Below are positions 1-46,700 of a stretch of 64,000 nt of DNA, piece by piece. The notes beneath the pieces were generated by a model. It was not told the DNA's origin, ran no database searches, and saw only the letters and a list, made by a program, of their open reading frames with translations. The translations under genes and the position numbers were made by a program. Position 1 is the stretch's first letter. Each line of letters begins with the position of its first letter. The stretch is from Marsupella aquatica (taxonomy: Eukaryota > Plantae > Marchantiophyta): positions 14,700,816 through 14,764,815 of the forward strand of contig OZ316895.1 in NCBI GenBank assembly GCA_973895155.1. Direction: 5' to 3'.

Positions 1-485
1 CACCATGCAAATCAAGTGGAATGTAGCCCAAGTGTGAGCCATCCGTATGCCAAATCAACTCTGTAGTATGCATGCTCATGCCAGTTTGTCAATGGTAAAA
101 CCTGGTGGGAACAAAGCCTCCTGGCCAATGAGCACATCATACGTAGTGGCATTGGTAACCAAACATTTGACTGGGAAATGCAGTTCCTGATCTATACCTC
201 CATTAAAAGTGAGAGTGAGTAAAGTAGAACTCTCACCCAACACGTCCTCCACGGTGCCACTAGCAGTCCGAATGTGCCACCTGGATTGCTGTAAATGATG
301 AGTCAGCAGTCCCATCTTCTTGGCAAACTGAATGCCCAAGATTACTGGTTGAGCGCCTGTGTCTAGCATGACCACCTGAGGAGTGTGACCCTCCAACTTG
401 ACTGCTGAATTCCTGTTGTCAACAATGGCAATGGTGGTGGAAACTAAAGCCTGTCACTAGACACCACTTTTGGCAAATGATGAGG
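1..485 (-). mobile_element. Fragment (aspartic protease region) of a second, oppositely oriented copy of the DNMT-Gypsy element, running off the left edge
   Basis: 1-485 is a near-identical reverse complement of 694-1177. ORF 76..396(-) has the intact protease motif VMLDTGAQP. Confidence 0.85.
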
Positions 486-774
486 CTAGTGTACGACTTG
501 AGTTAGCGACATGTTCTTATAGCAAATGCCAGGCGTTCTTGAAGCAAATGCCAGGCAGTGTAGGGGCAGCAGCCTAGTACCTGGATCGCGGTGGACGCGC
601 AATACTGGCCTCATAATGTGCATGGGCCAACTCAAGTTTCTCAGCAGTGTCATAGACATTGAGCAGGGTGTAGCTGTCTCCCTTCACAAGGTACCTCATC
701 ATTTGCCAAAAGTGGTGCCTAGCGACAGGACTTCAGTTTCCACCACCATTGCCATTGTTGACAACAGGAATTCA

Positions 775-1110
775 GCGGTCAAGTTGGAGGGTCACACTCC
801 TCAGGTGGTCATGCTAGACACACGCGCTCAACCAGTGATCTTGGGCATTCAGTTTGCCAAGAAAATGGGACTATTGACTGATCATTTACAACAATCCAGG
901 TGGCATATTTGGACTGCTAGTGGCACCATGGAGGACGTGTTGGGTGAGAGTTCTACTTTACTCACTCTCACTTTTAATGGAGGTACAGATCAGGAATTGC
1001 ATTTCCCAATCAGATGTTTGGTTACCAATGCCACTACGTATGATGTGCTCATTGGCCAGGAGGCTTTGTTCCCACCAGGTTTTACCATTGACAACTGGCA
1101 TGAGCATGCA
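775..1110 (+). pseudogene. Retroviral-type aspartic protease domain (catalytic DTG mutated to DTR)
   Basis: VVMLDTRAQPVILG...YDVLIGQEAL in ORF 526..1434. A frameshift near 1350-1377 separates it from the downstream pol frame. Confidence 0.8.
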
Positions 1111-1469
1111 TACTACAGAGTTGATTGGCATACGGATGGCTCACACTTGGGCTACATTCCACTTGATTTGCATGGTGCCCATACACCTATGGCTCACCAC
1201 TGTGTGTTGAAAGTAGTGCACACAGCTACCTATGTCAACCACCCATTGCAGGATTGGATTGAGGAGGATGATGATGAGGTGGCTACTGCACATGCTGCTG
1301 CACATATAGCAGCACTTTCCAGCAACGTGGATCATCAACCAGAGGTGGTACACGGCTCCAAGCAGCCCATGGACCTTTGGTGGCTGCATTGCGCAAATTT
1401 GAGGATCTTGGGCAGCACAATGGCCAACCAATAGCCCCAATCTTGAGCGCACCAGTTACATGGACTCCT

Positions 1470-2440
1470 CCTTCAGATGGCCTTACATTGCTTGAGCTTT
1501 TTGGTGGCATTTCTATAGGCTTGGAAGCTCTCCTACAGTCTGGCATGGTGGTGAAGCAGTACATCTATGTGGATATTGATCCAGGTGCAAGGCAAGTGGC
1601 TGAATCCCGTCTGCTGGAATTTTCAGAGCGATTTCCCCAGTAGTTTCCACACAGTGCATGGAAGTCTGCATTTTCTTTCTTTCCTCCAGATATCCAGCTT
1701 GTCCAGGACCGGCACTTCACCCTTCTTGGCTCCCTTGATTTGATCATAGCTGGTTGAAAATGCCAAGGGTTTTCAGCTGCTGGTCACGGTGGTGGACTGC
1801 ATGATTCTCGTTCTGGCCTTTTCACAGCATTGGTTTAGATTCTCATCTGGGCTCAATCCCTTTATCTTGCTGTTGGTTATATCATTGAGAATACTCCATC
1901 TCAATTTGACCAGCGTCCACAGGTCACAGAGGATTTCAGTGTGGTCCAGCACTACTTGGGACCACCCCTTCTCATTGATGCAGTGCACTGTGGTTCTTAT
2001 GCACATCGTCTTCGTAACTTTTGGACTAACCTTGCACCACCTTCCTTGCTGGAGTTCGCTCTTCACCACACATCCAGGGACACTACCCTCATAGTGGACC
2101 AGATTTTGGATCCTGACAGTTCTTGTCAACCAGTTACACGGCAAGAGTCAGCACCTTGGTATCCAGCCAATACCATTGGACAGCCCCGTGCTGCTTGGCC
2201 TACATTTGTATCCTTTCCAAGTGCACATGCCTTTCAGGGTGATGGTCCTGGCCTGGTTTATCGACATTCTACCGGTACATGGGATGAACCTAGTCCTGAG
2301 GACAGAGAACGGGCTATGGGCTTCCAATCCGGTACTACAAGTCACACCAAGATCACCAGGCTGGCCAGGAATGCTTTACTTGGCAGGGTAATGGATCTTA
2401 ATGCTCTCACTTGGCTTCTGGTCACTTGCATCCTTTTTCA
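1470..2440 (+). pseudogene. DNMT3-like C5-cytosine DNA methyltransferase domain within the retrotransposon pol frame (3 in-frame stops)
   Basis: Read-through gives motif I LELFGGISIG, II YVDID, III PPDI, IV DLIIAG*KCQGFSAAG, V GLHDSRSGLF, VI IIENTP, VIII AHRLRNFWTN, IX ERAMGF, X RNALLGRVM. Stops at 1641, 1755, 1836. Confidence 0.9.
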
Positions 2441-2810
2441 GATGTACATTCATCCAGCATCTGGAGTTCCAACTCTCCCACTCCATGGTGCTGCTACATG
2501 GCATCCGGATCAGGTGCACTTACCTCTATTCAACACTCACCGCTTCAGTCCCAGTGTTGGGGGGGAGGAGGTCCCTTGTAACGTGGCTAGCAGTATTTCT
2601 GAGTTTCATGGTGTGGACCAACTCAAATCAGCAGGTACAACAGGCCTTGGAGAGGCCTCATCACCTTATCAGCAGCATGTTAGCAGCTTGGATAGTGGAG
2701 AGGCTGGCACTTCTGGCTCTTCAAGCATGAGTACATCAGGTCCTATTCCTAGTGTTGCCAACTACACATTCATCATGGGCAACCACCTGAGTAAAAGACA
2801 GAAGGACTAG

Positions 2811-5351
2811 TTGCTGAATTTGCTCCTCAAGCATGAGAACGTGTTTGCTTTCTCTATGAAGGACTTGGGTAAGTGCAAGACTATGCAGTTCTCCATTGAG
2901 TTGGTTGATGAAACACCTATCTTCAGGGGGAGGCATCGTTTGAGTAAGCATGAGTGGCAGCTGGTGGATGAGAGGTGCCAAGAGCTCTATGAAGCTGGTC
3001 TTATTCAGCCATCTACATCAGATTTTGCAGCAGCTACAGTGATGCCAGCAAAGAAGGATTCCAGTGGATTATGTACAGAGAAGCGCATGTGTGGGGACTA
3101 CAGGCCAGTGAACCTGGTCACACCCCAGGACAGGTACTCCATGTCGCGGCCAGAGGAGCTATTTGACAACATTGGAGACTCAGACATCTTCACTCTTGTG
3201 GATCTAAGGCAAGGCTTCAACCAGATTTTGCTACTTGCAAAGGATCGCAAGAAAACAACTTTCCATGGTAGTAACCAACTATGGGAGTGGTTGGTGATGC
3301 CATTTGGCTTGAAGAATGCGCCCATATTCTTTCAAAGAGTCATGGACCAGGTTCTTCAAGGTGCTGAGTTTCTGAAATGCTACATTGATGATGTGTTGGT
3401 CCACAACAAAGGATTTGACCAACATCTACTTGACCTTGAGGAGCTATTCATGAGGCTTAAGAAGGTGAACCTGAAGATACACCCCAAGAAGTGTGAATTT
3501 GCTGTCAGATCAGTAGTATACCTTGGGCACCGCATTCTTCCAAATGGAACCATGGCTCACTGGGCCAAAGTGGTATCCATCCTGGAAATGCCCACTCCTA
3601 CTGATGTTCACACTCTTAGGAGATTTATTGGGTTGTGCAATTACTACCGGATCTACATCAAAGATTTCAGTACCATTGCACATCCATTACACTCTTTGTT
3701 GAAAAATAATGTGACTTGGACATGGAGTACAGATGCTAAGGCAGCATTTGCCACTTTGAAGGAGAAGTTCTCAGAATACCCGGTGTTGAGAAGACCTGAT
3801 TTCAGCAAGGTCTTTGTGCTACACACAGATTGGAGTGCCCTTGGGATTGGTGCCATTCTAGGCCAGCATGATGAGGAAGGTAAAGAGTACGTCATTGCCT
3901 ATGCATCCAGGAGCAACAATCAGACAGAGAGTCATTATTCTTTGTATGAGGGTGAATGTCTTGCTGTTGTGTGGGCTGTAATACATTACAGGCCCTACCT
4001 CTATGGGACCAGGTTTGTCCTCTACACCAACCACCAGCCCTTGAAGTGGTTGATGACCAACGACAAGCTTACTGGCAAGCTTGCTCGTTGGGCGCTCATA
4101 CTCCAGGAGTATGATTTTGAGGTAATTCATAGGCCTGGTGTGACACATCAAAATGTTGACACTATGTCCCGCAGCCCTTTGATTGCCTCTGATGATTCCT
4201 CAGATGCACGGCAGGATTCTGACCAGGTTTCCATCCTGCCTACATTTCATGCATCTACCTATCTTGCTTTGCTGCCATGCTACATCGTTGACCAACCTGT
4301 GGTGGACATATGGGAGGACAACGACACTCTGAGATTTTTGCAGCATGGGGAGTACCCCATACATGTTACTGCAACCCAGAGAGACCGAATCCAGCAAAGG
4401 TCCAAGCGTTACTTGTGGAAGGGAAATCATCTCGTGCGCTGCTTGCTAGACAGGGAAGTGGTGGTTCCACCCATTCATGAGAGGGTTGGCCTTATCCGTA
4501 AGGTACATTCTGAGCTTGGTCATTTTGGCGTTAAGAGGACTTACAGCCTCTTGGTCCCTCATTATCATTGGAGAGGCATGCATGGCCAGGTTCGAGATGT
4601 TATTGCCCGGTGTGAGCAGTGTGATAGGGTAAGGACTTCTTTCACATCTCGGCAACCCACACTTCATCCACTCCCTATTCAGGGCATGTTTTATCGTTGG
4701 TCATGTGATTTGGCTGGAGAATTACCCCTCACATCTCGGGGTAATCTCTACATCATGATCATGATAGAGCATTTCTCCAAGTGGATAGAACTTGTGGCAT
4801 TGCCGGATAAGACCTCCCGTAGCACCAGCCAGGCATTCCTGCAACAAGTTCTCAGCCGCTTTGGAGCTTGTGCAGAATGTCTCACTGACCAAGGCTCAGA
4901 GTTTAGAGGAGAGTTCCAAGAGCTGCTTGATCAGGCCCTCATTGATCATCGCCGGACATCACGAGATCACCCACAGGCAGATGGCTTGGCAGAGCGCATG
5001 GTTCAGACATGCAAGAAGGGTCTCCGGAAGATTTGCCTCACCAAAAACAAGGAGGATTGGGACCTGGCCTTACCCTACATTGCCATGGGGTATAGGATGT
5101 CTAGACATGCATCATTGTCTAACTTTTCTCCCTACTTCTTGTTGTTTGGTCGTCACCCAGTTCCACCTTCTGCTATTGCTGCTCACATGGTTCAGGTGGT
5201 GGACTTGGATTCAGCTGTGACTTGGTCTGATGTGATCTCTGAGAGGGCTGCCCTATTCAGGAGGGTTATGCCCATGGCCATGGAGAATTTGGCCATTGCA
5301 CAACATAGGGACACGCTGCGTTATGCACACACACGAGGGGGCACTTTTTAG
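2811..5351 (+). CDS. Gypsy pol: reverse transcriptase, RNase H and integrase (part of a stop-interrupted polyprotein)
   Basis: 846-aa ORF with YIDD, RNase H and HHCC/DDE motifs. Same frame as the ORFs starting at 1377, 1941 and 5472. Confidence 0.93.
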   Translation: MLNLLLKHENVFAFSMKDLGKCKTMQFSIELVDETPIFRGRHRLSKHEWQLVDERCQELYEAGLIQPSTSDFAAATVMPAKKDSSGLCTEKRMCGDYRPVNLVTPQDRYSMSRPEELFDNIGDSDIFTLVDLRQGFNQILLLAKDRKKTTFHGSNQLWEWLVMPFGLKNAPIFFQRVMDQVLQGAEFLKCYIDDVLVHNKGFDQHLLDLEELFMRLKKVNLKIHPKKCEFAVRSVVYLGHRILPNGTMAHWAKVVSILEMPTPTDVHTLRRFIGLCNYYRIYIKDFSTIAHPLHSLLKNNVTWTWSTDAKAAFATLKEKFSEYPVLRRPDFSKVFVLHTDWSALGIGAILGQHDEEGKEYVIAYASRSNNQTESHYSLYEGECLAVVWAVIHYRPYLYGTRFVLYTNHQPLKWLMTNDKLTGKLARWALILQEYDFEVIHRPGVTHQNVDTMSRSPLIASDDSSDARQDSDQVSILPTFHASTYLALLPCYIVDQPVVDIWEDNDTLRFLQHGEYPIHVTATQRDRIQQRSKRYLWKGNHLVRCLLDREVVVPPIHERVGLIRKVHSELGHFGVKRTYSLLVPHYHWRGMHGQVRDVIARCEQCDRVRTSFTSRQPTLHPLPIQGMFYRWSCDLAGELPLTSRGNLYIMIMIEHFSKWIELVALPDKTSRSTSQAFLQQVLSRFGACAECLTDQGSEFRGEFQELLDQALIDHRRTSRDHPQADGLAERMVQTCKKGLRKICLTKNKEDWDLALPYIAMGYRMSRHASLSNFSPYFLLFGRHPVPPSAIAAHMVQVVDLDSAVTWSDVISERAALFRRVMPMAMENLAIAQHRDTLRYAHTRGGTF

Positions 5352-5597
5352 CCCAAGGTCAGGAAGTTTGATGTGGGAGATTTTGTGTACTTGTAGTGGC
5401 AAGCTAACAACACCCTGGACACCTCTACTAGTCGTACTATTCTCAGGGTTAAAGCTATTCGACCGTCTGGAGTGCTAGAGTTACAAGGGGCAGATGGGCG
5501 CACAATTGCTGACAATGCCAAGAATTGCGCCCCTTGTCATCTGCCTAACCTGGATCCCACCATTGTGACTTCTACCTGGATTCCACGTGTGGACTAC

Positions 5598-5753
5598 CCT
5601 TGCAAAGTGTGTTTGCGAATTGATGATGCTGACCAGATGCTGCTATGTGATAATTGCAACGGAGGGTACCATCTTTTCTATCTGCGGCTTGAACTTACCC
5701 AGGTGCCAGAAGGGTTATGGTTTTGCCCTTCCTGTGCTCCACATGCCACCTGA
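5598..5753 (+). pseudogene. PHD finger at the C-terminus of pol
   Basis: CKVC...MLLCDNCNGGYHLFY...VPEGLWFCPSC fits C4HC3 with one Cys replaced by Tyr. In frame with the integrase beyond stops at 5349 and 5394. Confidence 0.88.
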
Positions 5754-5970
5754 CTTTTCCTCAGCCCTCCTTGTGACTGTGGTCTGGAGGGGATACAGAG
5801 GTTTACACCTCCACTACGTACATACCACCTCAGTTGCTTTTTCTTGGCACTTGGGAATGTGATTGGACTTTTTCTATGCATGTTGGTTGCTAGCAGCTTG
5901 CACATATGCATTGCCGGTGACTTGTATGTTTTTGATACACTATGGCTACGATACTATATGTCACGACAGC

Positions 5971-6507
5971 TGTCATGTCGAGGGACAGTGCCGCTTGTGC
6001 ACATCGGCATGTCCCTCGCATGCCCGCTAGGTATGTAGTTAGGGCTAGTGTACTACTTGAGTTAGTGTCATGTTCTTGTAGCAAGTCTGGGCCGTTCTTG
6101 AAGCAAAATGTGCTTGTTAGTGTGACGCCTTGACTTGATCTACTTAGGGCATGTCTTTCTTTGTTGGTTTTCAGTTCTTCTTGAATCGCTGTTGACAGAG
6201 CTCAGACAGTGCTCGTCGGTTCCATACACGGGATTCACACAGTGATTTATTAGATGCTCCCGGCTGATCTTGGCATCCTGCCGGTTTTCGATTCGATTTC
6301 AGTACGATTGTTTCTCTTACGCCTTTTATACATACAGAGGTTTACACCTCCACTGCGTACATACCACCTCAGTTGCTTTTTCTTGGCACTTGGGAATGTG
6401 ATTGGACTTTTTCTATGCATGTTGGTTGCTAGCAGCTTGCACATATGCATTGTCGGTGACTTGTATGTTTTCGATACACTATGCCTACGACACTATATGT
6501 CACGACA
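5971..6507 (+). repeat. LTR (537 bp) of the DNMT-Gypsy element
   Basis: Starts TGTCATG and ends CACGACA (imperfect inverted termini, TG...CA). Its last 176 bp are also present at 5793-5968, and an internal piece (~6043-6110) recurs at ~484-550. Confidence 0.75.
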
Positions 6508-8247
6508 ACATCATCTACCTTTTCTTAGAGTTTTGCCAACCCTTTACTCTTCTTTACCATATCAAACAAGATAATATTTGATCATGCCAATAATAGGCCA
6601 ATCTCTGTTTATGAAATGTTCTTGGCAGGAGGAAATATGGTAGTTTGCTGAAAAATGTTTTTTCATCACTGTTTCATCGGCCAAAAACATCTCCCTGCGT
6701 CCTCCACCTCGCCGTTCGTGCTTCACCTTTGTGTCTCACTCTGGCTCATTGTGCAACGCACGGGCACTTGGCTCGTACAATAAATATGATCTGAAGAGTA
6801 CCCATCTCCAATAACTTGTATGTTGCAAACTTGGTATGCCAAAATGCAGGCCCAATGGGGTAGCCAAATTGTTGAGATTGTCTGTTATTGGTGCAAATCA
6901 GATTATTACTACACTACTGTAGTTGTGTATCAAGTCAAATGTACCCCTGAAAGTTCCTATGGACCAAACATAGAAACAATGGACTAAATTCTATGTGACA
7001 TCTATTGATACTAACTGTAATGTACTAATTGTATTATACTACCCTATACTTGATGTTGGGAGTCTAAGGTTTCTCCAGTAACATTTCTAAGTACCCTTCA
7101 TTGCACCTGGTCTCCTGATCCTACAAAACACACTAAGTTCCCCTTGAGAGCTTTTCACAATAACAACATGCAACCATTAAGGTCCATTGGGTTAGTTTTC
7201 TTTGAGCCCTGGCAGCTTACAGTTTCTACCAAGGTGGACTTTGAATTCATTTGGCACATAGTTGCCTTCACTTGAAAAAGAAGAAAAGAGACATCTCCCG
7301 AGTATGAATAGCCTGGCTGACACTTCTGCTTCTTTGCCTTGCAACCTGCTGGTTTCTGTCACCGATGCTTTTGAATTCATTCTGTTTTTTCTTTTTCCTT
7401 CTAATCTATGTGAAAAGGATAACAATGAGCCCAGTGTTTGCCGTGGTAAAACCCGGGCATGGAGAACAATTAACCCGTGAGACCAGATCCCATGCCTACT
7501 GAATCCTCCATGTCTAAAAGCCGCCCAACCAGACCCAGGGTCACCAACTAAGAGCATTTGGGTGCGAATGGATCAGGGTAGGGTCAGTCATCTATGAACA
7601 CTCATAACTAATGGAGTAGATAGGTGAACTGTCCCATCAATCCAGATTGGGGAGTACTTGAATTCATTTGATGCACCATAGCCTTCACTTTAAAATTAAA
7701 AAAAAATTGAAGGGCCTTTATTATCCTTTGGCTGGCGGAGGCATTTGGTTTTAGGGCTTCTAGTCAAATCCCTCTTTGTCACCCACTTATGTTGTTCACC
7801 CTGGAGCTCTACCAAATGTTTCAGTCTGTAGCTCAGTAGGGCTTTCAAACCTTTGACTTTCAAACTTCTGGGCATTTACCGGTTGGGCTTTTGGATTTTT
7901 TGGCCCATTGGCCTCTTAGCTCTTAGGTTTTCCCTTTTTAGTCCTCTGTTTTCCCCCCTAATTAGGTGTTTGGCCTTTGGGCTCATGTCTCCTCCCCATC
8001 TGGTGTTTTTGTTCCTTGGCAGTTTTATTGTGGTTGGGGCCCGATGCCTCCAGTTCTTTTTTTTGCGCATATAATTTCTCTGCATATGATCCTGCAAAAT
8101 ACAGTGTACATTACTAAATAGAGGGCATTTGCAAAGAGTTCAGTTTTTGTGACCAAACCTCTTGGTCATCGGCGTGGTATACAAAAGACATGTCCAGTGT
8201 TGAATAGCCTAGGCCAACGATTCTCCTCCTAAATTTTGTTCAAACCA

Positions 8248-8417
8248 CCACTATCCATATTAAAAGGAGAAGTGTCCAATACTTTTTCACATTTCTCTCC
8301 TCTAGGGATTTCTCTCCTCTAGTGTGAGACTTCCACTATCCATATTAAATGGAGAAGTGTCCAATACTTTTTCACATTTCTCTCCTCTAGGGATTTCTCT
8401 CCTCTAGGGTGAGACTT
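8248..8417. repeat. 85-bp tandem duplication (2 copies)
   Basis: ccactatccatattaaa...gtgagactt at 8248 and 8333. Confidence 0.9.
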
Positions 8418-16226: not shown

Positions 16227-19200
16227 TTGCTCCTTTCGAGGGCTACACGGTTAGTTCTGTATCCAGGAGCACTGTACTCAGAAGCGAAGATAGTTGAGAA
16301 CATCCGAATGTGAATTCCCCTCGTGCTGTTGACGCCGAACGCGACATTGTGGCACCCTTCACTTGTGCCAGGTGGTTCGCAGATTCTGTCGTCAGTCCAG
16401 CTAGTCGTTAGTTGTCACGAGGAGTCTGTACAATAGACATTTTTTTTGCCTTGTACAATAGACATTTATATATTTCCCCGCTGAATGCTATTCTCATTTC
16501 TCGGGAGTAGTGAAGCGTGTTCTAATTCTCCTTTTCCCCATGGCTAGAGGTTTGTTACTCAATCTCTATTGCATATCAAGATTTTTTGTATCAAAAGATT
16601 TCAGAGAATTACATTGCCGAATCCAGCAAGGGAGGATCGCAGAAGTGGAGCGATACCCAATGAGAACCCGAGGTTGGACTAAGAGTAATGATTAGTTAGT
16701 GCATTCTTGGAATACTTTCCTGCAGTGTTCAGACACTCTTACGCTCTGACCGCTCTGATTTAGCTTTTCCATTGTTCTACCTGGGTCGACTGGTTCAGGA
16801 CATCGATTAACAGCAGCATGTCGCAACCACGCAGTCATCGGAACTTTGAGCTGACTCCCGGATTCGCCAGAACGCCGGCTGTCAGACCTTGGCTGGGTTG
16901 ACGAGCAAACTAGATTAGATACGCCGTTTGATGAGTCTCTAATTGTCAACTGATAATCATGATTTAGACTTAACATGCAAATCTAGAATTTATCGTGCGC
17001 AGGAGAATCTCGGTTCCCCTGTTGTGGCGAAGCCGCCGAACGTGGTTTGCTCAACTCATGTCCCTGGTGGTCCGGGCAATGTGACGCTTTCTTAATTAAT
17101 GATGTTGATGGGGGACTGAAGATCGGGGGGCTGTCCTCTCTCTTGTCACCACACCAACTGTATTCGCCACTGTTGATCGTATAGCGTCGCCAGCTACACC
17201 ATCAAAGTGGGCTGTACTCGTCCACTGAATACGGTAAAACGCCATAGTTTCCTCACCCGGCGATAGCTCAGTGCTATTCTCACCATGACGTTCCCCAACG
17301 TAGTCTGTCCCCTTCGAAAGTAAGCATCCCGAGAGAGCAGCCCAACCATGCCCAGTCTGCAAGGTAGGAAACAGTAGAGCTTCGCACCACCTTCGCTGAT
17401 CAATGACCTTTTCTTCTGGGTTCAGTGATTTTTAACGCAAGCCCTAGGTATCCAGATTTGCATATTTATAGTCGTGTAAAAGGTCTAGATAATGCACATT
17501 ACCACACCAATCGATTCTTTCCCTTCATTGCACCTGGACGTCCGAAAAGTAGTCCACAGTCTAACTGTCAGTCATGTGCAAGAAAGACTTCGCACTTTCC
17601 GATGTGTCGACACTATTTAACGTTGAATCTTCGATGCCATCCAAATCTTCCTGTAGGGTTCCTTGTTCATTGTGTCGTTAGTGGCTGAAACTATAATTCG
17701 AGCCCATACTGTAATGTCATTACAATTGCATACCTCCACGAGGTGCGGGGGAGCTCAGTGGTGGGGCTGCCAGTCTTCCTGAAATACTAGCCTGGCAGAG
17801 ACTTCGTAGTGAAAAGGAGCCAATTAGGCTTCTGCTTGTCAACAGAACGTAGTTATTAGGTACCTTTTCATTCCATCGTTGCAAGGGATTGGCTAGGGTC
17901 CAGCCTGACTGCCTGAGTTTGGTCATGTTTGGATTTGTCTACACTTCAGGCCCCACTGGTAGGGCCAGGTTGGCTACTACCGCTCATTTTCTTCTTTGTC
18001 AGGCACGGAAACTCCTACCGTCCATACTCACCGTTCTCTGAATTCCAGAAACCTTGTCCGGAATCAGAGGAACTTGGACCGACTGTGCCAGTCAGAGCAA
18101 AAATAGAGGCATATCGGACATGTTTGAATTGTAGTTTGCAGAGGGCAGTGAATGCTCGCCAATTATTGTTGTTTGTGCAACTGGGGCCCCATTTCTTCGT
18201 TATTTTATTCAATTGCAAGATTAGACTGGCCTACTGAACCCGGCTGATGCTCCTACCTTAATCCTCACTCAGCGTCGGGGTTGGGGTTATGTACTGTGGT
18301 ATCTTAGGTCGTTACAAAACGAATTGTTGGCTCTAACGAGTCGTGGTGGGACTTTGTCCATGTTCGATGTGACCTCACTGGTAATGCCCTCGTTTTTTTC
18401 AATTTTCTCTTGCGGGCAGAGCCAGAGGCAAACTTTACTTCACAGGATGGTGGTGGACTCGTGTCATTGCATGCTGTGGCATTTGGTCAATCAGTGCAAA
18501 TGCATGCTAATTTCAGGGGCACAGAGCAGTTTGCATCTAGGCAGCTTTCCCTGTGTGCCCCTTTGAAACACACTTTTTCTGTGCGCCGTAGAGGAGCTTC
18601 CAAGCAGTCGCAGGCTGACAGTCCCTCCTTTTCTATTTATTTGTTTTGAAAGGTGAACAGAGGGGACTTCTCTTCTACTGTAAGATGTCGTCTGTCGTTT
18701 AAATGAAGCCACCGGCCATTATTGGCTTACCAGTACAAGAACTGAAGGCACCCCTAAAAGCGTGCAATGAGTAGGTCCTGTTTGCTTATGATTGTGCCAT
18801 GCTTTCTGAGTCGTGTCGTTAGACCACCTTTGGAGGTCCACTTCGCCTCAACGGGTAGTCTAAAAAACTAGGATCGGGGACAAAGTTAATTGCACGCCTG
18901 TTCAGACACGTTAATGCCACCTTCGTCATCGATTCTCTCTTGTTAGTTTAGTCTCCTGTACTACTCATTGGGTAGTGGTAACCCATGATACATAGAAGCA
19001 ACATGACTCAGTGGTATAAAAGAATAATCGCGTTCATACGGGTATGGAAAAATTTATGCAATGGATGAGTGTTTGCCACTTGTCACATTGCAACATATGC
19101 TGCTGATTTTATATCTGCAACTACTGTTAGGCCTACTCATTGTCATCATCTCCTCCTGGTAATTGTGGCGAACTGATGGGCCTGACTCTTGTAAAACGAC

Positions 19201-31000: not shown

Positions 31001-32046
31001 ATTCCTGCTTCCTTTCGCCGGACGGCGTCTGCTCTCAGCCGCATTGATTGAATTGATCAGCACCTCCTGGATTTCCAAAGTGGTTCTATGGTCACTTTGA
31101 CGGAATCTGCGCTCGCCGTCTGCAGATGACGTTTGTTTCGTGTCTGTCGTCAAATTTTCCATATGTATGGGTTATCGGCAGTGCTTTGGACCATTCCTTT
31201 GGATATCTCGAAGTGATTCGTGGCAAGAATTCACTCTTCAGCTTTCATTTGTGCCGCGAAACTAGGAATCCCTCTCGACGTGCATTATATAGGATATTTT
31301 ATACTATCTGCAGATCTGCACCGTATTTGTTCTCTTGTCCTATTTGTCCCAGTTTAGACACGGAAATATAGACCTAGGGATTTCATTGAGATCTGTGAAT
31401 TACCATGTGGAGGGGTTCTTTCGGTGGTCAGGGCCGGTAGGAAACCATCGTACAGGACCCATGCTTGGTCTGATGGTGAAGTGTAATCCGGAGTACTGGC
31501 CCAGAACCGCTTGTCCTTCTATGCATCGGCATTGGCAGGAGTGTTGAGCTCGTGCTTTCTAATGATGGCCACCTGGATGCGATCTAGAGTCCTACGATGG
31601 TTACATTTTTGCCATTGGGGCGGGCGTGTCCAAGGGGCACGGTTTACTACGGGTTTGCTGTGTTGTGTGGTTACTCAGGAGTAAAGACTGAAGGGGTTGG
31701 TGTGGCCAAGGACTAGTCCATTCTAAGCAAGGAGGCCATGACCATTTGGAAGTAGGGCTCGTCAAAGCACCGATTTGCTTCGAGCCGTTTGAATTGTTTT
31801 TGGAATTGTTTGCCTTATCTTCTGAACGGAAGAATTTTTCTGTCTGCTGCTCTAACTCGCCGTGATGTTGCGTTGTGCAGAATTGTTTTGTTGGAACTCG
31901 ACTTGACAGACATATAAGGGATTTCGACCTAACGGGTCGAGTCAGCAATAACGGGGTTTTCACAATTTGAAACTGTGGGGTCCGACCAGGCTGGCAATGG
32001 TCACGCTTTGACCGACAAGCTGACGTCGAGATCTACTCAGACCAAG

Positions 32047-33369
32047 ATGCCTCCAAGCGCCATGCCAGACCATTTCCCCTCCACTCCAGGGAAAGTGAAA
32101 GTGGAGCGGAGTAGTTACATTGTCAGGGTGTTCAGTCGATGGCAGAGCACTTTGTCCTCGAGGCTTTTTGGCATTTCAATAATCCTGTTCATGTTGACTT
32201 TGATGATGCTTCTACTGCGGTCGAATAGTCCCAACACTTGGGGTCTCGGTGACGGATTAGTTGGTCCTGTTCAAGCCAAATGGGGCGACATCGTGTGGCA
32301 AAGGAAAGTCCGGCAATCCTGTCATGCAAAGCGCGAGAATGGATTCGTGGTTTTGGTCACGGGAGCTGCTGGCTTTGTTGGCTCTCATGTGTCACTTGCT
32401 TTGAAGAAGAGAGGAGATGGAGTTGTTGGGCTGGACAACTTCAATAACTATTATGATCCGACTCTCAAGCGAGCTCGCGAAGGCCTTCTCGATAAGCATG
32501 GCGTCTTCGTTATTGAAGGGGATCTCAATGATGCTGACCTCTTGAAGAAGCTTTTTGACATCGTACCCTTTACGCATGTCATGCACTTGGCAGCTCAGGC
32601 TGGGGTACGCTACGCGTTGGAGAATCCAGGCTCATACGTCCATAGCAACATTGCTGGGCTCGTCACTTTGCTGGAGGCTTGCGTGAAAGCCAACCCTCAA
32701 CCGGCAATAGTGTGGGCCTCATCAAGCTCTGTCTACGGCTTGAATACCAAGGTGCCTTTCTCAGAGACCGATAGAACAGATCAACCAGCTAGTCTTTATG
32801 CAGCCACCAAGAAGGCTGGGGAAGAATTCGCACATACTTACAACCACATTCATGGGCTTTCGATTACGGGATTGCGATTTTTCACAGTTTATGGGCCTTG
32901 GGGGAGGCCCGACATGGCCTATTTTTCTTTCACCCGGGATATTCTCAATGGCAAGCCGATCACAATATATCAAGGAGCCAATAACAAGGATCTTGCCAGG
33001 GACTTCACATACATTGATGACATTGTCAAAGGCTGTGTGGCGGCCTTAGATACAGCTGAGAAGAGTACAGGTAGTGGTGGGAAGAAGAAGGGCCCAGCTC
33101 AGTTCCGAATTTTCAATTTGGGTAACACAGCTCCAGTGACTGTTCCCGACCTGGTGATGTATTTAGAAAGGCATCTTAAGGTCAAAGCCAGAAAGGATCT
33201 TGTGAAAATGCCTCGCAACGGTGATGTACCGTTTACTCACGCCAATGTTACTCTTGCTAGAACGCAACTCAACTACAATCCGACGACCAATCTGGAAGCA
33301 GGGCTGAAGAAGTTCGTGAATTGGTATAAAACGTACTACGGAGTGTCGGGTGGTAGTAGGAGAAGATGA
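32047..33369 (+). CDS. GAE: UDP-D-glucuronate 4-epimerase (Golgi type II membrane SDR), single coding exon
   Basis: N-terminal PSTPGKVK, a TM helix, GAAGFVG, HLAAQAGVRYA, YAATKK, LRFFTVYGPWGRPDMAYF, NGDVPFTHAN. First ATG at 32047. Confidence 0.96.
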   Translation: MPPSAMPDHFPSTPGKVKVERSSYIVRVFSRWQSTLSSRLFGISIILFMLTLMMLLLRSNSPNTWGLGDGLVGPVQAKWGDIVWQRKVRQSCHAKRENGFVVLVTGAAGFVGSHVSLALKKRGDGVVGLDNFNNYYDPTLKRAREGLLDKHGVFVIEGDLNDADLLKKLFDIVPFTHVMHLAAQAGVRYALENPGSYVHSNIAGLVTLLEACVKANPQPAIVWASSSSVYGLNTKVPFSETDRTDQPASLYAATKKAGEEFAHTYNHIHGLSITGLRFFTVYGPWGRPDMAYFSFTRDILNGKPITIYQGANNKDLARDFTYIDDIVKGCVAALDTAEKSTGSGGKKKGPAQFRIFNLGNTAPVTVPDLVMYLERHLKVKARKDLVKMPRNGDVPFTHANVTLARTQLNYNPTTNLEAGLKKFVNWYKTYYGVSGGSRRR

Positions 33370-38401: not shown

Positions 38402-41400
38402 CTACTCATCAATTATACCTTCCATGTAAATTTTGAGAGTTTTCAAAACATTCTTAGGAATTGTCAAACCTCTATCCATAATATTTTGTTCTTTAGCACC
38501 TGACTTAAACCCATACATTGCAGAATTTGCAAACTGCCAACTTTGAGTAACATTGTCAAACCCAGGATCCAGCTCCCAAGTCTTAGTGGTTTGAAAGCAA
38601 CGTTCATATCGAACATCATCCTTCCATGTTTAGGCCTCCACCATTGTACTTGGAACATAGGAGCATTCCTAAGAGGAATGCTCTCAACAGACGTTGAAGA
38701 AGACCCTTCAATATGTTGCAAATCTGTTGAGGGAACCTCATGGTTTGGATCCACACCACCCAAAGCTCGAACCAACCAGAAACGCCCTTTGCCATTCTCC
38801 TGTTCCCATTCATCCTCTGGACGTAAAAATACAAAGTGACCTTCTTGAATATCTTGTAGAGGAATCCAACGTGCAGGTTCTCGCTCTTGTCGTGCACCAA
38901 CAAAGGGTGCAGCTTGATCTTCCATCTCTTCCATGTACTCATTTTGAAGGTCCATCATCTCTGGATTTTGAGAAGGTTCACTTGACGGCTGAGATGTCCC
39001 CAAAATCATCTTGTAACTTGTGCCATGGTTAGTCTTTGGCCAAAAATCAGTTGTCAATGGCAAATGTCTTTCCTCCTCCCCTTCTATTGTAAGTTCCTCG
39101 GACAGTGCTTGCACAAGATTCTCCCAATATTTGACCAGAGGAAATCTCTCTTTATATGCTGCAGAGGTCTCATCCTTACAACTTTTCTTCAAGAAATCAA
39201 TATAGCGATTAAGGAATGGGATGATTTCTCCAGCCGTCTTTTGTACATCCCCAGATATAGGTTTTGCAAATGGTTGGCCTTCCGGTAAAATGAGCGCATT
39301 TGTGATGGGATCAGTTCTCCAAATGGACCTCCCCATTGCCGGAAGCCAAGGTTGCTTGACATGTGCTTTATATTGATACACTGGCACATTATCCCTCATG
39401 GAGAAAAGAAATGCCACTGGTTTTGAGTGACCTTCTATCTCTTTCACCTGGAAAGTTTTCAAATACTCCTTGTAAGATGCAACCTCTTGAATCAATCGTG
39501 GTACATGATGAATGCTTTCACACTCCCAAACCTCAGCCATCAACCCCAAGAGGGTAGCAACCTCTTTGTATCTGACCTGTTTGGATACTTGAGAAAATAA
39601 TGCATCCACGTCTTCATGGGTGTGGCCAACCATGAGGAATGACATTTGCACAGTTTCAAACACCCCCCTGCTAACAAGCTCAATGCAAAATGCCATCACA
39701 TATTGATTTTTGTTATCTTTCCCTGAATTGTCCATTTGCAACGTTAGGTGCCTTGGTAAGGGCTTGAAAGAGCCCCTAGTAGTCTCAGGATCATCCTTAG
39801 AACCAACATCCACTATGGTTGACTTTTTAGTCTCCTGACCATCTTCAATGCCTTGAAATCGAACAATTGAAACATTTTTGGGTTCCAAGTAACCGGCCAG
39901 AAATGCTTCAAAGTCTAGAAGGGACTGAAATATTGGCCTAGTTGCATTCCAATTCAATCCCTCAAGAAGGTCTCCAGTTTTGTCTCCTGTGTAATCTTCC
40001 AAATCTCGGAGGCATTTGGCCAAAGATGTCACGGTAAAGTCTGCATCTCTAGGCCAAAGTCCAGTCAAACTGAAATGTGCATACACTCCAGGATCTCTTC
40101 CATGGGTTAACATCCCAGTAAGAGCAATAGGCAAAGGCTGACCACTACCAGAGAGGGATTTTGGAGTGGGGACCAACCTGGGGATCCAAGTCTTGGCTTG
40201 ATCCATCTTATCGTGAATAATGCAAAGATAGTTTTGAGGATCCTTCTTTGCAAGAACCCTATGAGCATAGTAAACATATCTTCTTGACATTTGTTCACGA
40301 AGATGTCGCGCTCTTTTCTCTTCAATCTCTGCACGCTCTTTTTTTCTCTTCTCCCGCATCAATTGATCTTTGAACTCAGTGCAAAATGTGCACTTGGCAA
40401 ATGCACTTCCCTTGTGAAAGTCAAAATTATCAAATGAGTTTTTCCAGATGTTGTACATAGTAACTTCAGTAACCTTAGCAAACCCATCTAATTCCATCTT
40501 GGTGAACACCTCTTGGAAAATCTTCTTCTTAGTAAAAGAAGATGGGAGCCGATATTCAATAGTGTCAGTGCCGTTGGACCCACCATAGGGAAGATGTGGC
40601 ATTGGTTCCCCATTTTGGATTAAAATGGACTCCAACAAGGCGCGAGCGTGCAAAGTGCTTGATCGTGTCTTCCGTTGTCCCTGATTTCCATGGAAACCAA
40701 TTGTGCAACCAGCTTCGTATTGATTTTTGTAGTCATAGTACTTTGTTGTATTGAACCCATGCATTTTAATAAATGCATCTTTACAAACCACACGTCCCTT
40801 TAGAACAAAAAATCCCTTTCTCTTGACTTGCTCCTCTCTACACCCAAAGAGACTAAAGATGTGACTTGTTTTGTTGTCACTTGACATTCCATGGTATTCC
40901 CTCCTCATTGCCTCTAAGTCCTCCCTGGGCATGTTCAAGCAACACTTCAGCTTGCAACAACCTTCTCTTTGGATGGAATCAATGGACTCCTCGTTAATTT
41001 TCAAAAGTGCCCTCGACTCCAAATGCCTTTTCTTCCTCTCCTCAAGATCAACTTTTGTCCTCCTAATGAAATTGTATGGTCTTTTTGTAGGTTTACCATC
41101 ACCATCCGAATCCGGATCGCCCTTAGTTCGACCCGACTCCATCCACTTCTCTGAAACTTCCTCAAGGATATCCCCAAGAAACCTTTGAGACGAAATCAAT
41201 AGAAGGGATTTGATTTCCCACCTCACCAAGCCAGGGGTACCAACACGGATATTTGGAAATAATCCGGGTTCATTGATATTCACAACAGCAACACCAACAT
41301 GATCTGCACCAAGAAGTTCATCGTCAACGGCACCTGTTTCAAATGGGACCGTGATAACACCTGTTGCAACCTTTCGACAACGAGAAGCGTCATACAAATC

Positions 41401-42105
41401 AACCTCCTCCGCCATCCAGTTGGAACGTAGTGTAAAATCTTTTAATGGAAGATCATTGAAAATATTTGAACTACCAAACACGCCAAAATCTCAAAGAGTG
41501 CCCTTTCTAGAAACATGCGCAACATCCCAGATAACCCAGGTATGCAAGGCCTCTGCTATTGTATCAGCTCCAGGGTGCGAGTATGACAATTTTTGATTTC
41601 CCTTAACAATATCAGATATTCTTATACTGATGCGACCAACCCCGAGTGTTTCAGTATGACAAATATCCATCGGATTTGTCTTGAAAACAACTCCATTTGC
41701 AACCAACTGATCAAAAATGAACATCTGAACTTCATCCCCTTCCTTGAACACGTCCTCTTCAACCCTTGCATCAATTTTGGATTTATCATTTCCAGCATCT
41801 CCAGCCAAAGAGAAATCATCGACATTGATTCTTCGGTGCTGAGTTGATGACCTCAAGTATGCCAATGCACAATCCCAAATCACGCAGGAGTCAATTGCCT
41901 CAGCCAATGTAGAAAATTTGGGCAAAGGAAATGGAAGTTGACGCGATCCATCAAAACACTTTTCGATCAATACCCCAATTCGATTGTCCCCTAGACAAAT
42001 GTTCTGTATAGTATCCTGGGGGTCAACCTTTTGAACTATCCCAATTGCCGTTTCAAATCCATCAATCACCAATGACACTTCATCCCCTCGTGTAAAATTG
42101 ATCAT
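38402..42105 (-). pseudogene. DD(E/D) transposase (Sola-like/DUF7869-type) with three N-terminal Tnp1/En/Spm-like domains; one in-frame stop and one late frameshift
   Basis: Motifs CIIHDKMDQAK, LQMDNSGKDNKN, FLMVGHTHEDVDALFS and FAKCTFC. ORFs 41491..42105 and 38464..41481 share a frame, separated by one TGA. A shifted frame from ~38620 (RYERCFQTTKTWELDPG...) continues to TAG at 38402. Confidence 0.85.
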
Positions 42106-42232
42106 GATAGCGGACTATCTGTATTCAAATAAAGTTAGAAATTGTTAAGTTCCCCATGTTACAATCATGTTTCAAAATCTGGACTCTCCTCCAAAAAATA
42201 TTGTAAAATCACTCAAAACCCTAAATACATTC

Positions 42233-42560
42233 AAGTCGGGTCGGAATTATTTCGACCCTCCTCCAACATTATGTCTTGAAATGATTGAATTGACTAAACA
42301 TTTACAAGTCGGGTCGGAATTATTTCGACCCTCCTCCAACAATATGTCTTGAAATGATTGAATTGACTAAACATTTACAAGTTGGGTCGGAATTATTTCG
42401 ACCCTCCTCCAACAATATGTCTTAAAATGATTGAATTGACTAAACATTTACAAGTCGGGTCGGAATTATTTCGACCCTCCTCCAACAATATGTCTTAAAA
42501 TGATTTAATTGACTAAACATTGATAAGTTGGGTCGGAATTATTTCGACCCTACTCCAACT
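42233..42560. repeat. 73-bp tandem array (4.5 copies), each unit with palindrome GGGTCGGAATTATTTCGACCC
   Basis: Units start at 42233, 42306, 42379, 42452 and 42525. A degenerate inverted copy lies near 42660-42682. Confidence 0.95.
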
Positions 42561-43722
42561 ATTAAGTTGAAATTATGTCAAAACTATTTGTGAAACTATC
42601 TTGCTTATGCTTTTATATACCAGTTTAAAATGCTAGTTAAGATGACATAGTCAGGTCGGCACGAAATAATTCTGACCCACTTCTAGAAACTATGTTAGTA
42701 ATCACATAAAGGGGTACAGTAAGTTCTACACATGCTAGACTGTGGATAAAGGTCTAGAATGAGTAAAATATATGATCTAGAACCTAATGTGTAAATCTTA
42801 ATCTAGGTTTGGCTTAAAGGTATTGAATTAGATGTAGTTGAGCTAGTACTTCTAAGATAAATAAATAAAATCACTAACCTGCTCCGCAATATATCTCTGT
42901 CCACCCTTGTACAAGCTAAATGGGTACCTTGGATGCCAGCATTGTAACTCTTAGCACCACAGTGCTCACCAGTGCCCTTACTAAACCTTGCATTCAACCA
43001 TGCGGACCTAAACAAGGCACTCGGACAGAGGAGAGTCAGTGATCGTACCAATCACTGTCTAAATGACAATGAACCAAAAAATGGATTGTGGGAGGTCTAT
43101 ACTCAGTTTGAGAGGCAAAAAGCCCACATATTACCCAACACACGAGTGGACACCAACAGATCGGGCACGGGTGGATGAGGCACGCACCCAGCACACAAGT
43201 AGACATCGGATAGGGTGTCAGCCAATCACTCACGAGTGATAGGTGAGTTGCGAGCACACACCGCTGACAGCTCGGAAGTTTAAAATTGGTAGGTGAGTCG
43301 CGAGTGGTCGTGAGTGGTCACACCATCGGTGACTCACGATCACATGCACCGAGGAGGGTCTCCATCATTGGCGCGCATTGATGCCTCCGTACCCTCTCGG
43401 ATCCTTGCCTCCTCGGACTCCTCGCTCGCAGGGGGTATAGGAAGGCAGGCCTTGCGCTTGAGGCCTCATTTCCTTGCCTCCCTCTTGCCTCCTCTCTCGT
43501 CTCCTCACTCCTTGCCTCCCTCTTGCCTCGCTCTAGGGCTTTTGTTTTTGCCTCGCTCTTGGGATTTGTTTTCCGCCTCGCTCTAAGGCTTTTATTTCCA
43601 CCTTGCTCCCTTCCCTTTTGGGTCGCTCCCTCGATCATTGTTTGCCTGTTAGTGCCCTCTTGCAGCCTGTGGCATTCTCCATTGCTGCCACGTGTCATCT
43701 TAAATCTCACTCGCCCCTTACA

Positions 43723-46700
43723 ATGTCTACTTCCTCCAGTTCTGAAGCTTCCACCACCTCCGCCAGTTCTCAAGAGTCATTGAACTTCAATTATAACTCT
43801 CTGTATGAATATGACCCTGAAGACCTGGATGTCCAAAAATTGGTTAACAATGCGTTGGAGGCGTCAAAGAAAGCCCAGTTAACTTTTCCACGTAAGGCAC
43901 CTCCTGCTTCAACTTCTTGCCTCGCCCTAAGGGCGAGGCAACTTTACTTTAATTTGGATTTCAAACTTCTTATTAGGAAAATTTCTATATTCCTTTGCAG
44001 TCGCCTCGCCCCAAGGTCGAGGCGACGTCTACTTCATTCTAGATTTCTTGTTGCTCCGAAGGCGTATTGGACCTTGTATCTTACATTAATAAAGGATCTT
44101 TAGCTATATTCTATTTTTTGCCTAGCTCTTGGGGCGAGGCGATGTCGTCTGCATTCCTCAAATGTAGTTTGCATTCCCAGAAGTTGCCTCGCCCTTGGGG
44201 CGAGGCAATGTCCTCTACATTCCTAAATGTTGTCTGCTTTCCCAGAAGTTGCCTCGCCCTTGGGGCGAGGCGATGTCCTCTGCATTCCTAAATGTTGTCT
44301 GCTTTCCAGAAGTTGCCTCGCCCTTGGGGCGGGGCGATGTTGTCTGCATTCCTAAATGTTGTTTGCTTTCCTAGAAGTTGCCTCGCCCTTGGGGCGAGGC
44401 GATGTCGTCTGCATTCCTAAATAATGTTTGATTGCTTGGATGAGGTGGCAGGGCTAATTGCACTAGGAGCAAAGAAGATTTTGCAATCTTCTATTTGTCG
44501 CCTCGCCCCAAGGGCGAGGCACCTTGAAAGTTTTCCACATGTCAATGTTAAAAATATGATGCTGACCATTTTGTTTTCAATGTTTCTTACCAGGAAAAAA
44601 TCTTGAGAAGCCGGAGTTAAATATTATGGACGAGGATATCAAGGACTTTGTTTTCCCTGACCAAGATACTCTAGGATTTAGATGGGCACTAGAAGTTGGG
44701 GTGTCGGCGGAAGGCAGTCTCTTGATTTGTTTCAAGGGCCTCACAAGTCAATTGAATGACCGCAAGACAATTGTTACTCTAGGTCCAGTCGTCCTTGTGA
44801 ACACGGACAACAACCGCAATGCAACGATTATTGTTGAGTCCAATGAGAAATCTCAGTGGATGAGACTTCTAGTGCCAATAAAACTCTACTCGACTTTACT
44901 GAATGTTGAGTGGATGGCTCGATTGGAGATAAGCGTAGCTGATATGGGATTCTTCCCAGATGGAGTAACAATTGATCAGATGTTTGAGAAGACGCGTTCT
45001 CAAATAAGTGGAGTTGACCTAGTGTTTGGATTTCTCTACGTAAAGAAGCACATGCATGACAATGCGGACAGTGTGGACCCTCCGTCTACTTGGATAGTTC
45101 AAAGGATGATTGATAAGGCACATTTTTCATACGAGCAAGCAATCGACAAGAGTTTCATTTTTTGTCCAGAGTTTCAAGAGGCCGCGTGCCGGACGTGGAT
45201 TTCAGAGATGAAGAAAAAAGAAGCAAAGCATAAGGCAAAGGAGAGAAAGAAGACAGTGGAAAGAAGTGCGCAATCAAAGACAGAGAAGAAACGAAAGCTT
45301 CAAGAGCCGGTTGTTCAACAAGAGAAACAATCTGGGAGTTCACGCCGTAAGAAGATGGCTAAAAAAAATGAAGATGATGAGGGCCCCCAAAAAAAGCAGA
45401 CAAAGAAGGCAAAGGTTGCAAAATCAAAACCAATGTCAGGGTCGACTTCAAACTTTGTCTTGCATCCAAAGGATGATATGTGTCCGACAGAAGGACCCAA
45501 AGAAGATGATGTGCTCAAAGGCCAAGAGGTTTTGCGTAATATTGAGCAGTATTATACTTTTGGCATCCGCGAAGTTTTTGATATTCCTGTAAAAAGTATT
45601 AATCCGCCATCGGCCATTTTTGTATATCGAATGTTCAATCTTTTGCATGCAATGGAGATATCAAAGTCTATGATGAAAAACCCTGGACAGGAACCACAAG
45701 TTGCTGATTTGATTCCGTATCACGAGAGCACTAAACAGTTGCTTCATTATGACAACACACCTCAGGATAGGAAAGAGTTTTTGATTGGTGTGAAGAAGCA
45801 TGAGATCCAATTCCTTGCCATCAGTGGCCAGCATTCTGCAAGAGCTGCCCAATGGATCCAAGGGTGGGCCGAGACTAACGCCAAGCTGACAGATCTTGCC
45901 AACAAACTAAAGTATAGGAAAGCAAGGATCCTATCTGACCTCACTCCGAAGACAATTTTGGTTGAACATTCAAGTTTATCGAATGCTGTCAATGATACTA
46001 TGCAATTTAAGTCTTGTTTTTTAGAGACTATTGTTCATGCACGAAGGCAGTTTGAGGAGTGCGGGAAACCGCCGCGTCCAGGGATTGGGACCAATCAAAA
46101 TACAGACAGGAAAAACTATCAGGTACATGTTGGAGCAACGCAAACTATTCTTGATCCGCTTTGTTTAAAGATTGTCAATGGTAGAGGTTTGCCTTGCCCC
46201 AAGGGCGAGGCTGCCTTTTCTTGTTTTCCTTGGTTAGAAGATTAAAGCAAATGTTTGCCTCGCCCTCAGGGCGAGGCAACCTAGACTAGTCTCTCTAAGA
46301 ATAATTCCCTAGTTCCGTTTCAGTCAATTGCGGTTAGATGTAGAGGTTCGCCACGCCCTTGGGGCGAGGCGGCTTAGCCTGTTTCAAACATAGGTATAAA
46401 TTTTCTAACATATGCATTGTACCCTGAAACTAATGTCAAGTCCATTGGATATGCAGGATTGGTTTGCCCTGGCAAAGGTTACAATGGGGAAGTCAAGCCT
46501 AAAGAGCATTTATTGGTTACTTTTTGCCGAAGATGAGCTCTTTGAATTATGGCGGAACGTGTGTGCAAAATGGTTGAGTGGGAAGCTCCAAGACGGGGCT
46601 GGTGGGTATGGAGGGCCAAGACCCCCAAAATTGATCACTCCCGGTACCTTTCGATGCTTTGAAGGAGAGATTAGTAGCAAACAGATAATTGAGATCTTGA

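Follow-up and report, generated by a model that had tools for sequence, protein, structure and literature searches.

Cytosine methyltransferases of the DNMT3 type have been reported inside retrotransposons of dinoflagellates and of one charophyte alga, where the copies are few. KnitGypsy-Dnmt3, from the charophyte Klebsormidium nitens, has a Pol of the Gypsy type that includes a Dnmt3 domain, non-rearranged and with a Ka/Ks below 0.2 (de Mendoza et al. 2018, PMC5890265), and the legend of Fig. 4c in that paper calls its repeats DIRS-like, giving those of the Symbiodinium element as A-coding region-B-A-B (PMC5890265). The Symbiodinium element, SymbioDIRS-Dnmt3, carries out de novo CG methylation of DNA in yeast (PMC5890265). 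A 2025 paper cites the 2018 work for ‘streptophytes and dinoflagellates’ (PMC12344493), a preprint on EpiLTRs separates its own elements from ‘streptophytes (Gypsy-DNMT3)’ (bioRxiv 10.64898/2026.05.21.726589), and a screen of accessory domains in plant elements with long terminal repeats (LTRs) does not mention a DNMT, as judged by the terms ‘DNMT’ and ‘methyltransferase’ (PMC9289625). In this work, we analyse a 64-kb stretch of DNA (the window, 64,000 nucleotides) and consider it likely that its positions 694-6507 are a decayed, 5'-truncated liverwort copy of a Ty3/gypsy-type element (gag, protease, DNMT, reverse transcriptase (RT), RNase H, integrase and PHD finger, in the layout A-coding-B-A-B), whose conserved DNMT3-like domain is predicted to methylate the element's own complementary DNA (cDNA) or its fresh insertion in intact copies. 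Our literature searches found no land-plant element of this kind described, only the Klebsormidium and dinoflagellate reports, with the proviso that the supplements of the 2018 paper might list more hosts; this agrees with an earlier note on the same DNA, which knew of no characterised land-plant case.

The methyltransferase lies in frame 3 of the plus strand, which runs without a frameshift across 1278-5351, its protein-coding reading being interrupted by four in-frame stops. The domain, these stops and the motifs, with motif positions set by aligning the window domain with the domains of 18 relatives, are:

1440-2420, plus strand: DNMT3-like C5 cytosine methyltransferase domain; shares the frame of RT, has the protease on one side and RT on the other, and contains three stops
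1500-1520: motif I, FGGISIG
1641-1643, plus strand: in-frame stop TAG, private to the window copy; CAG in other copies
1749-1769: motif IV, AG-stop-KCQG
1755-1757, plus strand: in-frame stop TGA
1755-1760, plus strand: the same private TGA plus AAA, within motif IV; TGG GAA (W-E) in other copies
1761-1763, plus strand: codon of the catalytic Cys
1836-1838, plus strand: in-frame stop TAG, private to the window copy; CAG in other copies
1887-1895: motif VI, ENT
1995-2030: motif VIII, SYAHRLRNFWTN
2301-2324: motif IX, ERERAMGF
2367-2396: motif X, RNALLGRVMD
2808-2810, plus strand: in-frame stop TAG

Motifs I, IV, VI, VIII, IX and X stand in canonical order in this alignment, and the relatives carry Q, W and Q where the window domain has its three stops. 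All 20 aligned sequences (20 of 20) agree in the catalytic Cys, in the motif VI residues E-N and in the motif VIII pattern R-x-R...W.N. Motif IV varies, reading W-E-C-Q in the bryophyte clade as well as in the proteins P0010, P0019 and P0025, stop-K-C-Q in the window and W-P-C-Q in other clades. The Pfam family PF00145 (DNA_methylase) matches residues 138-193 of the read-through translation of 1278-2810 (X at stops) with 26.9 bits against a cut-off of 22, and relatives score 28-37 bits. With three stops in the domain, one of them inside motif IV, the enzyme cannot be made by the window copy.

Other copies of the element show where these stops came from. We aligned contigs of four sequencing runs to the 6-kb element, X1 and X2 being runs of the coded organisms A and B. 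Position 1641 reads C in the other copies (57211/57530 depth in X1, on 19 contigs; 11835/11835 in X2; 1170/1183 in X7), positions 1757 and 1758 read G (109081/109081 in X1, on 21 contigs; 981/981 in X2; 8438/8438 in X7) and position 1836 reads C (16581/16581 in X1, on 7 contigs; 22336/22336 in X2; 185/381 in X7). The three stops of the domain are private to the window copy and each derive from a C>T or a G>A change, the affected codon being CAG in two cases. The earlier note had attributed the stops to such changes, as the sense base at all three sites in the contigs bears out; it had placed the domain at 1470-2440, between protease and RT and in the RT frame, with ordered motifs and three stops, all of which alignment, Pfam and reading frames show to be correct. 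Its tentative description of motif IV as W-x-CQ instead of PCQ fits the W-E-C-Q of the family's bryophyte clade and the stop-K-C-Q of the window, the PF00145 search that it proposed came out above the cut-off, and the Gypsy type that it gave to the pol is confirmed by Pfam matches to RVT_1, RT_RNaseH, Integrase_H2C2 and rve.

The domain recurs at the same place across a large family. There are 36 protein matches of 746-2375 amino acids to the window's DNMT part, many of which combine PF00145 with RT, RNase H, integrase and PHD in a single chain. P0010 (2358 amino acids) is a single open frame in which Pfam finds protease, DNMT, RT, RNase H, integrase and PHD, preceded at the N-terminus by a gag-like part that we recognised by eye in the sequence. 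Metagenome contigs yielded at least 465 coding relatives, of which we kept 80 loci; these share 67-73% DNA identity with the window over up to 5 kb. On the 6-kb element we placed 6572 contig pieces from X1 and 3399 from X2, and summed word depths reach tens of thousands, up to about 180,000 in X1, which marks the family as highly repeated in both, depth not being the same as copy number. Run X17, which we guessed to be RNA, had no contigs on 1600-1880 and is uninformative on expression. The same DNMT domain also occurs in a second architecture, RT, RNase H, DNMT, integrase and PHD (P0019, P0021, P0025 and P0052), P0025 having an additional G-patch. The C-terminal tails of P0021 and P0025 show, by eye, a second pattern like that of S-adenosylmethionine (SAM) methyltransferases, and Pfam has no match there.

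We then compared codons by the Nei-Gojobori method in the window's frame. The span 1440-5351 is covered by 32 of the 80 loci, of which 24 were used after eight near-duplicate or partial ones had been dropped (L024, L032, L038, L051, L052, L055, L057 and L065). The proportions of nonsynonymous (pN) and synonymous (pS) differences between the window and the 24 loci, and the ratio omega (dN/dS) among the 24 loci (276 pairs), are:

DNMT: pN 0.232, pS 0.712; omega among loci 0.42
RT-RNase H: pN 0.145, pS 0.722; omega among loci 0.35
Integrase: pN 0.128, pS 0.681; omega among loci 0.46
DNMT-RT linker: pN 0.324, pS 0.675; omega among loci 0.49
RNase H-integrase link: pN 0.353, pS 0.281; omega among loci 0.72

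Between the window and the loci, omega of the DNMT domain is about 0.12 (calculable for 22 of 24), and the wrong-frame controls on the same domain gave 0.96 (+1) and 2.27 (+2). By these codon comparisons, and despite the roughness of the figures, the DNMT domain is constrained about as strongly as the core enzymes.

Among solved methyltransferases, the domain is closest to DNMT3A, DNMT3B and DNMT3C, as judged by sequence profile and predicted fold. When all solved chains were searched with a profile built from 16 gag-protease-DNMT proteins, the best matches were DNMT3A, 3C and 3B at 65-71 bits (DNMT3A 71.5 bits, E 2.9e-19); the same search gave DRM 35 bits, M.HaeIII 32 and M.HhaI 27, and DNMT1 is absent among the 60 rows listed. 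An AlphaFold model of the window domain (X at stops, 20-row alignment) has a mean predicted local distance difference test (pLDDT) score of 90.4 and a predicted template modelling (pTM) score of 0.89, and the Foldseek list down to rank 50 consists of DNMT3A/B/C alone, with a template modelling (TM) score on the target of about 0.8 at roughly 20% identity. The motif order is unpermuted, unlike that of DRM.

To place the domain among its relatives, we built a midpoint-rooted maximum-likelihood tree of 53 element-type domains. Its rows cover 85% or more of the model, apart from P0288 and P0179, which were included at lower coverage, and five near-duplicates were left out. The window falls in a clade of eight (support 100/100), its nearest row being a Calypogeia fissa protein (path 0.34), and this clade and the K. 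nitens clade lie within one 34-row group of modest support (95/60). DNMT stands before RT in all four rows of that group with a detectable RT motif (the window, P0003, P0010 and P0017), and it stands after RT and RNase H in 11 of the 18 rows of a second group (94/74) and in P0038, which sits alone at the drawn root. One further protein, P0201 (455 amino acids), carries the label of a ‘Candidatus Obscuribacterales bacterium’ metagenome-assembled genome (MAG); it is 42% identical to the window domain and falls among eukaryotic gag-protease-DNMT proteins in the tree, and probably comes from a mis-binned eukaryotic contig.

In a live element, the DNMT domain would be synthesised as a segment of Gag-Pol, would travel with RT and integrase, staying next to RT in the particle or pre-integration complex, and would methylate cytosines of the newly made DNA with SAM as the donor; methylation of new element DNA has been proposed for the DIRS-borne enzyme (PMC5890265). 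The PHD finger at the C-terminus probably guides integration to chromatin in which lysine 4 of histone H3 (H3K4) is unmethylated, the part that the chromodomain plays in chromoviruses. It is closest to the PHD fingers of WSTF, ATXR5, KDM5, BAZ2 and CHD4 (E 4e-14 to 1e-11), which read H3 tails with unmethylated K4, and by this analogy a putative role in choosing silent chromatin is likely. The window copy itself bears a methylation footprint, as shown by a CpG observed/expected ratio of 0.31, compared to 0.71 and 0.57 in two host genes, together with a two-fold excess of places where it has T or A and the other copies have C or G (114, versus 54 in the reverse direction, in X1).

Several points weigh against this overall reading. 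Nearly all C5 methyltransferases have Pro at motif IV, where the bryophyte clade has Glu. An open stretch of more than 847 amino acids occurs in none of the 80 metagenome loci (plus strand, each locus so oriented), so that these, too, are dead copies, and none of them is an intact, full-length member of the subfamily to which the window copy belongs, the contigs of X1 and X2 being too short to show whole frames. With synonymous sites near saturation (pS 0.71) and all copies dead, the omega value (about 0.12) is a rough one. Host silencing would explain the CpG depletion as well as self-methylation does, and a single acquisition of the domain is not proven because the tree is without host DNMT3 rows. 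Finally, the KnitGypsy-Dnmt3 domain gave no methylation in yeast, where DNMT3B failed as well, for which reason its authors draw no conclusion from the result (PMC5890265).

That yeast result, with the same caveat of the failed DNMT3B (PMC5890265), and the W-E-C-Q shared by the bryophyte clade, P0010, P0019 and P0025 are what a pseudo-enzyme would lead one to expect, that is, a domain kept for binding SAM or DNA, or as a spacer within Pol, that lost methylation through the change of Pro to Glu at motif IV. We regard this as quite unlikely, given that dead domains usually lose residues such as the catalytic Cys, the motif VI E-N and the motif VIII R-x-R, all invariant here in 20 of 20 sequences, that sister clades keep P-C-Q, and that the predicted model has a complete DNMT3-like fold. 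An enzyme of this fold might also act on RNA, either the element's genomic RNA or a host RNA, instead of DNA, as exemplified by DNMT2. Such a substrate has been suggested for a LINE-borne (long interspersed nuclear element) DNMT (PMC5890265), but the window domain most resembles the DNA enzymes DNMT3A/B/C in both sequence and fold, and not DNMT2, and the related DIRS-borne DNMT3 methylates CG in DNA (PMC5890265), so that we hold RNA to be a very unlikely target.

The three stops would by themselves suit a single event in which the window copy captured a piece of a host DNMT3 that has since drifted neutrally, the outcome that the earlier note had named as speaking against its proposal. We found the domain to be family-wide and constrained instead: it occupies the same position in hundreds of relatives, other copies have sense codons at the stop sites, and pN between the window and the 24 loci lies well under pS in the correct frame only, a dN/dS analysis of the domain being among the checks that the note had proposed. 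This leaves next to no probability for such a capture, which we rule out. The DNMT3-like assignment of the note likewise stands, DNMT3A/3C/3B being the top profile matches and DNMT3A/B/C the only Foldseek matches to rank 50, as does its land-plant host, the neighbouring epimerase gene described below being 94% identical to Calypogeia fissa and then 82% to Marchantia polymorpha. A decayed copy of an element whose intact members would methylate their own DNA is the reading that we retain.

The remaining features of the window copy are:

1-485, minus strand: inverted duplicate of the protease region (reverse complement of 694-1177), continuing past the left end of the window
484-548, plus strand: repeat-A-like fragment of 65 nucleotides, 85% to 6043-6107; sole remnant of the 5' A repeat
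580-675, minus strand: short gag fragment, reversed, in the spacer; tblastn match to P0041 residues 3-35, 67% identity, E 3.8e-7
694-1351, plus strand: protease part of the polyprotein, frame 1; Pfam stretch 778-1068, gag-asp_proteas at 20 bits, under its cut-off
1351-1352, plus strand: frameshift, with the protease frame before it and the DNMT/RT frame after it
2421-2810, plus strand: poorly conserved DNMT-RT linker, ending in the TAG at 2808-2810, where P0041 and P0003 have Q
2811-5351, plus strand: open stretch of 846 codons, ending in TAG 5349-5351
3051-3536, plus strand: RT (RVT_1, Pfam)
3798-4112, plus strand: RNase H (RT_RNaseH, Pfam)
4470-4637, plus strand: integrase zinc finger (Integrase_H2C2, Pfam)
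4692-4973, plus strand: integrase core (rve, Pfam)
5397-5753, plus strand: C-terminal part with PHD finger, separated from the integrase by stops at 5349 and 5394
5601-5735, plus strand: PHD finger (PF00628, E 2.8e-10)
5793-5968, plus strand: repeat B1
5969-6331, plus strand: repeat A2, between both B copies
6332-6507, plus strand: repeat B2, the 3' end of the element

The window copy is dead, with one frameshift, six stops between 1641 and 5396, the gag lost and an inverted duplication on its 5' side. Its match to full-length relatives spans about 679 to about 5683, and as this homology starts only at about 679, gag and the 5' leader are missing. The extra base near 1351 is found in part of the other copies, as an A inserted behind 1351 (11354/33796 depth in X1), and one zinc-binding Cys of the PHD finger is Tyr in the window copy when aligned to the PHD fingers of WSTF and ATXR5. 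The inverted arms, 1-485 and 694-1177, are 96-100% complementary by repeat search (22 of 487 columns differ) and enclose a 208-nucleotide spacer that contains the repeat-A fragment and the reversed gag fragment; minus-strand tblastn with P0004 and P0041 also recovers the left arm. This head-to-head duplication across 1-1177 may mean that a second, inverted copy lies to the left of the window.

B1 and B2 differ at five places in about 177 nucleotides. The window retains the B-A-B end of the A-coding-B-A-B layout, with A1 reduced to 65 nucleotides, and the complete layout is present in relatives L002, L012 and L050. In coordinates of L002, the repeats are:

A1: 7798-8089
B1: 16469-16653
A2: 16646-16937
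B2: 16938-17122

An ordinary LTR pair is ruled out, there being no upstream B copy and no such pair in the window, L002, L012 or L050. The order of DIRS elements is ruled out as well by the DDE integrase (rve and Integrase_H2C2), and no tyrosine recombinase family appeared in Pfam scans at E up to 0.01 of four window pieces (523-1434, 1278-2810, 2811-5348 and 5397-5750) or in the relatives scanned. PWWP and ADD reader domains were not found by Pfam in these four pieces, P0010 or P0041, and Rfam has no match on the window. The earlier note is to be corrected in that the window copy is dead and 5'-truncated and that its layout is A-coding-B-A-B instead of ordinary LTRs.

The host is, to judge from protein matches, a liverwort near Calypogeia. 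An intronless GAE-like epimerase gene at 32044-33366 of the same 64-kb sequence has its best named match, at 94%, in an unnamed protein of the leafy liverwort Calypogeia fissa; it is 82% identical to Marchantia polymorpha and about 67-75% to Sphagnum, Selaginella, conifers, ferns, flowering plants and a jgi/Mesen1 row, which from its name we take to be the alga Mesotaenium. The DNMT domain itself matches the C. fissa gene models P0179 (66% identity, with a protease domain) and P0244, the Sphagnum gene models P0208 (Sphagnum compactum) and P0230 (Sphagnum magellanicum, with a PHD finger), and P0288 of Klebsormidium nitens (32% identity over 86% of the query, E 1.5e-33). On these matches, the family is present in liverworts and peat mosses.

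Elsewhere in the window, an intronless leucine-rich-repeat gene at 61959-63224 on the minus strand (LRR_4 and LRR_8, E 1e-38) is presumably a host gene. Three very long open frames, at 38464-42114 (minus strand), 44566-48391 (plus strand) and 49067-50128 (plus strand), one with DUF7869 (E 1.9e-43) and two without a Pfam match, look like a large unclassified mobile or viral insertion. Beside these frames of 38464-50128 lies a split NIF-like phosphatase, and a NIF-like phosphatase piece was the only Pfam match among 52 further open reading frames of the window. A Copia-type element at 51691-55841 on the minus strand consists of long open pieces interrupted by a few stops (gag, integrase, RT and RNase H by eye), and at 8248-8417 an 85-nucleotide unit stands in two tandem copies that are 98% alike.

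Hosts rely above all on cytosine methylation to fight transposons, and an element that brings its own DNMT3 reverses the usual picture of host versus transposon methylation. The interest of the present case lies in host range and family abundance: where the earlier printed cases came from dinoflagellates and an alga with few copies, the liverwort lineage is very abundant and has relatives in peat mosses. It provides land-plant systems in which to ask what transposons gain from methylating DNA, with methylome tools at hand and genetics in Marchantia. There is also a risk for annotation, as the unnamed gene models of Calypogeia fissa and Sphagnum could be miscounted as host DNMTs. We think it unlikely that a live Gypsy-DNMT3-PHD family exists at very high copy number in bryophytes, with a de novo methyltransferase of its own inside its particles, a PHD finger that directs these to H3K4-unmethylated chromatin, and methyl marks that the particles set on their insertions; transposon enzymes in place of the host's would in that case write some of the liverwort and peat-moss methylome, and DNMT3 genes may have been exchanged between host and element in land-plant evolution.

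Compared with the systems known to date, the window's element shares with host DNMT3A/3B/3C and plant DNMT3/DRM a catalytic domain for which these are the best match, its unpermuted order being that of DNMT3, unlike DRM; it differs from host DNMT3 in that the domain lies inside a retrotransposon polyprotein, without PWWP or ADD by Pfam on 1278-2810, and has about 20% identity to DNMT3A in the structural alignment. As in chromoviruses, a small chromatin-reader domain is fused to the C-terminus of the integrase, but it is a PHD finger where they have a chromodomain. EpiLTRs are also LTR-type elements with a cytosine methyltransferase, but are described as having in addition a Dam-like adenine methyltransferase and a chromodomain, and a DNMT that is sister to DNMT4 (bioRxiv 10.64898/2026.05.21.726589). 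SymbioDIRS-Dnmt3 is alike in its DNMT3-type domain in Pol and its A-coding-B-A-B repeats, whereas it has a tyrosine recombinase in place of the DDE integrase of the window element and is given as an independent acquisition (PMC5890265).

The closest system is KnitGypsy-Dnmt3, with the same Gypsy-type domain set, a non-rearranged DNMT3-type domain in the Pol frame, the A-coding-B-A-B layout and purifying selection (PMC5890265), and with P0288 of K. nitens as a detectable homologue in the window's 34-row group. The window holds protease, RT, RNase H and DDE integrase together with DNMT, and P0010 holds them in one open frame, which is the make-up of a Gypsy-DNMT3 element; we place it in the same lineage as KnitGypsy-Dnmt3 because of the A-coding-B-A-B layout, the K. 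nitens homology and the shared group. The two differ in host, here a liverwort with relatives in Sphagnum, at only about 32% identity; in abundance, which is very high in X1 and X2 compared to the few copies of K. nitens (PMC5890265); in the W-E-C-Q of motif IV in the bryophyte clade; and in having a PHD finger downstream of the integrase, the term PHD being absent from the text of PMC5890265, figure 4c aside. The element is thus of a known kind, that of KnitGypsy-Dnmt3, and what is new is its host group, a liverwort, not yet described in print.

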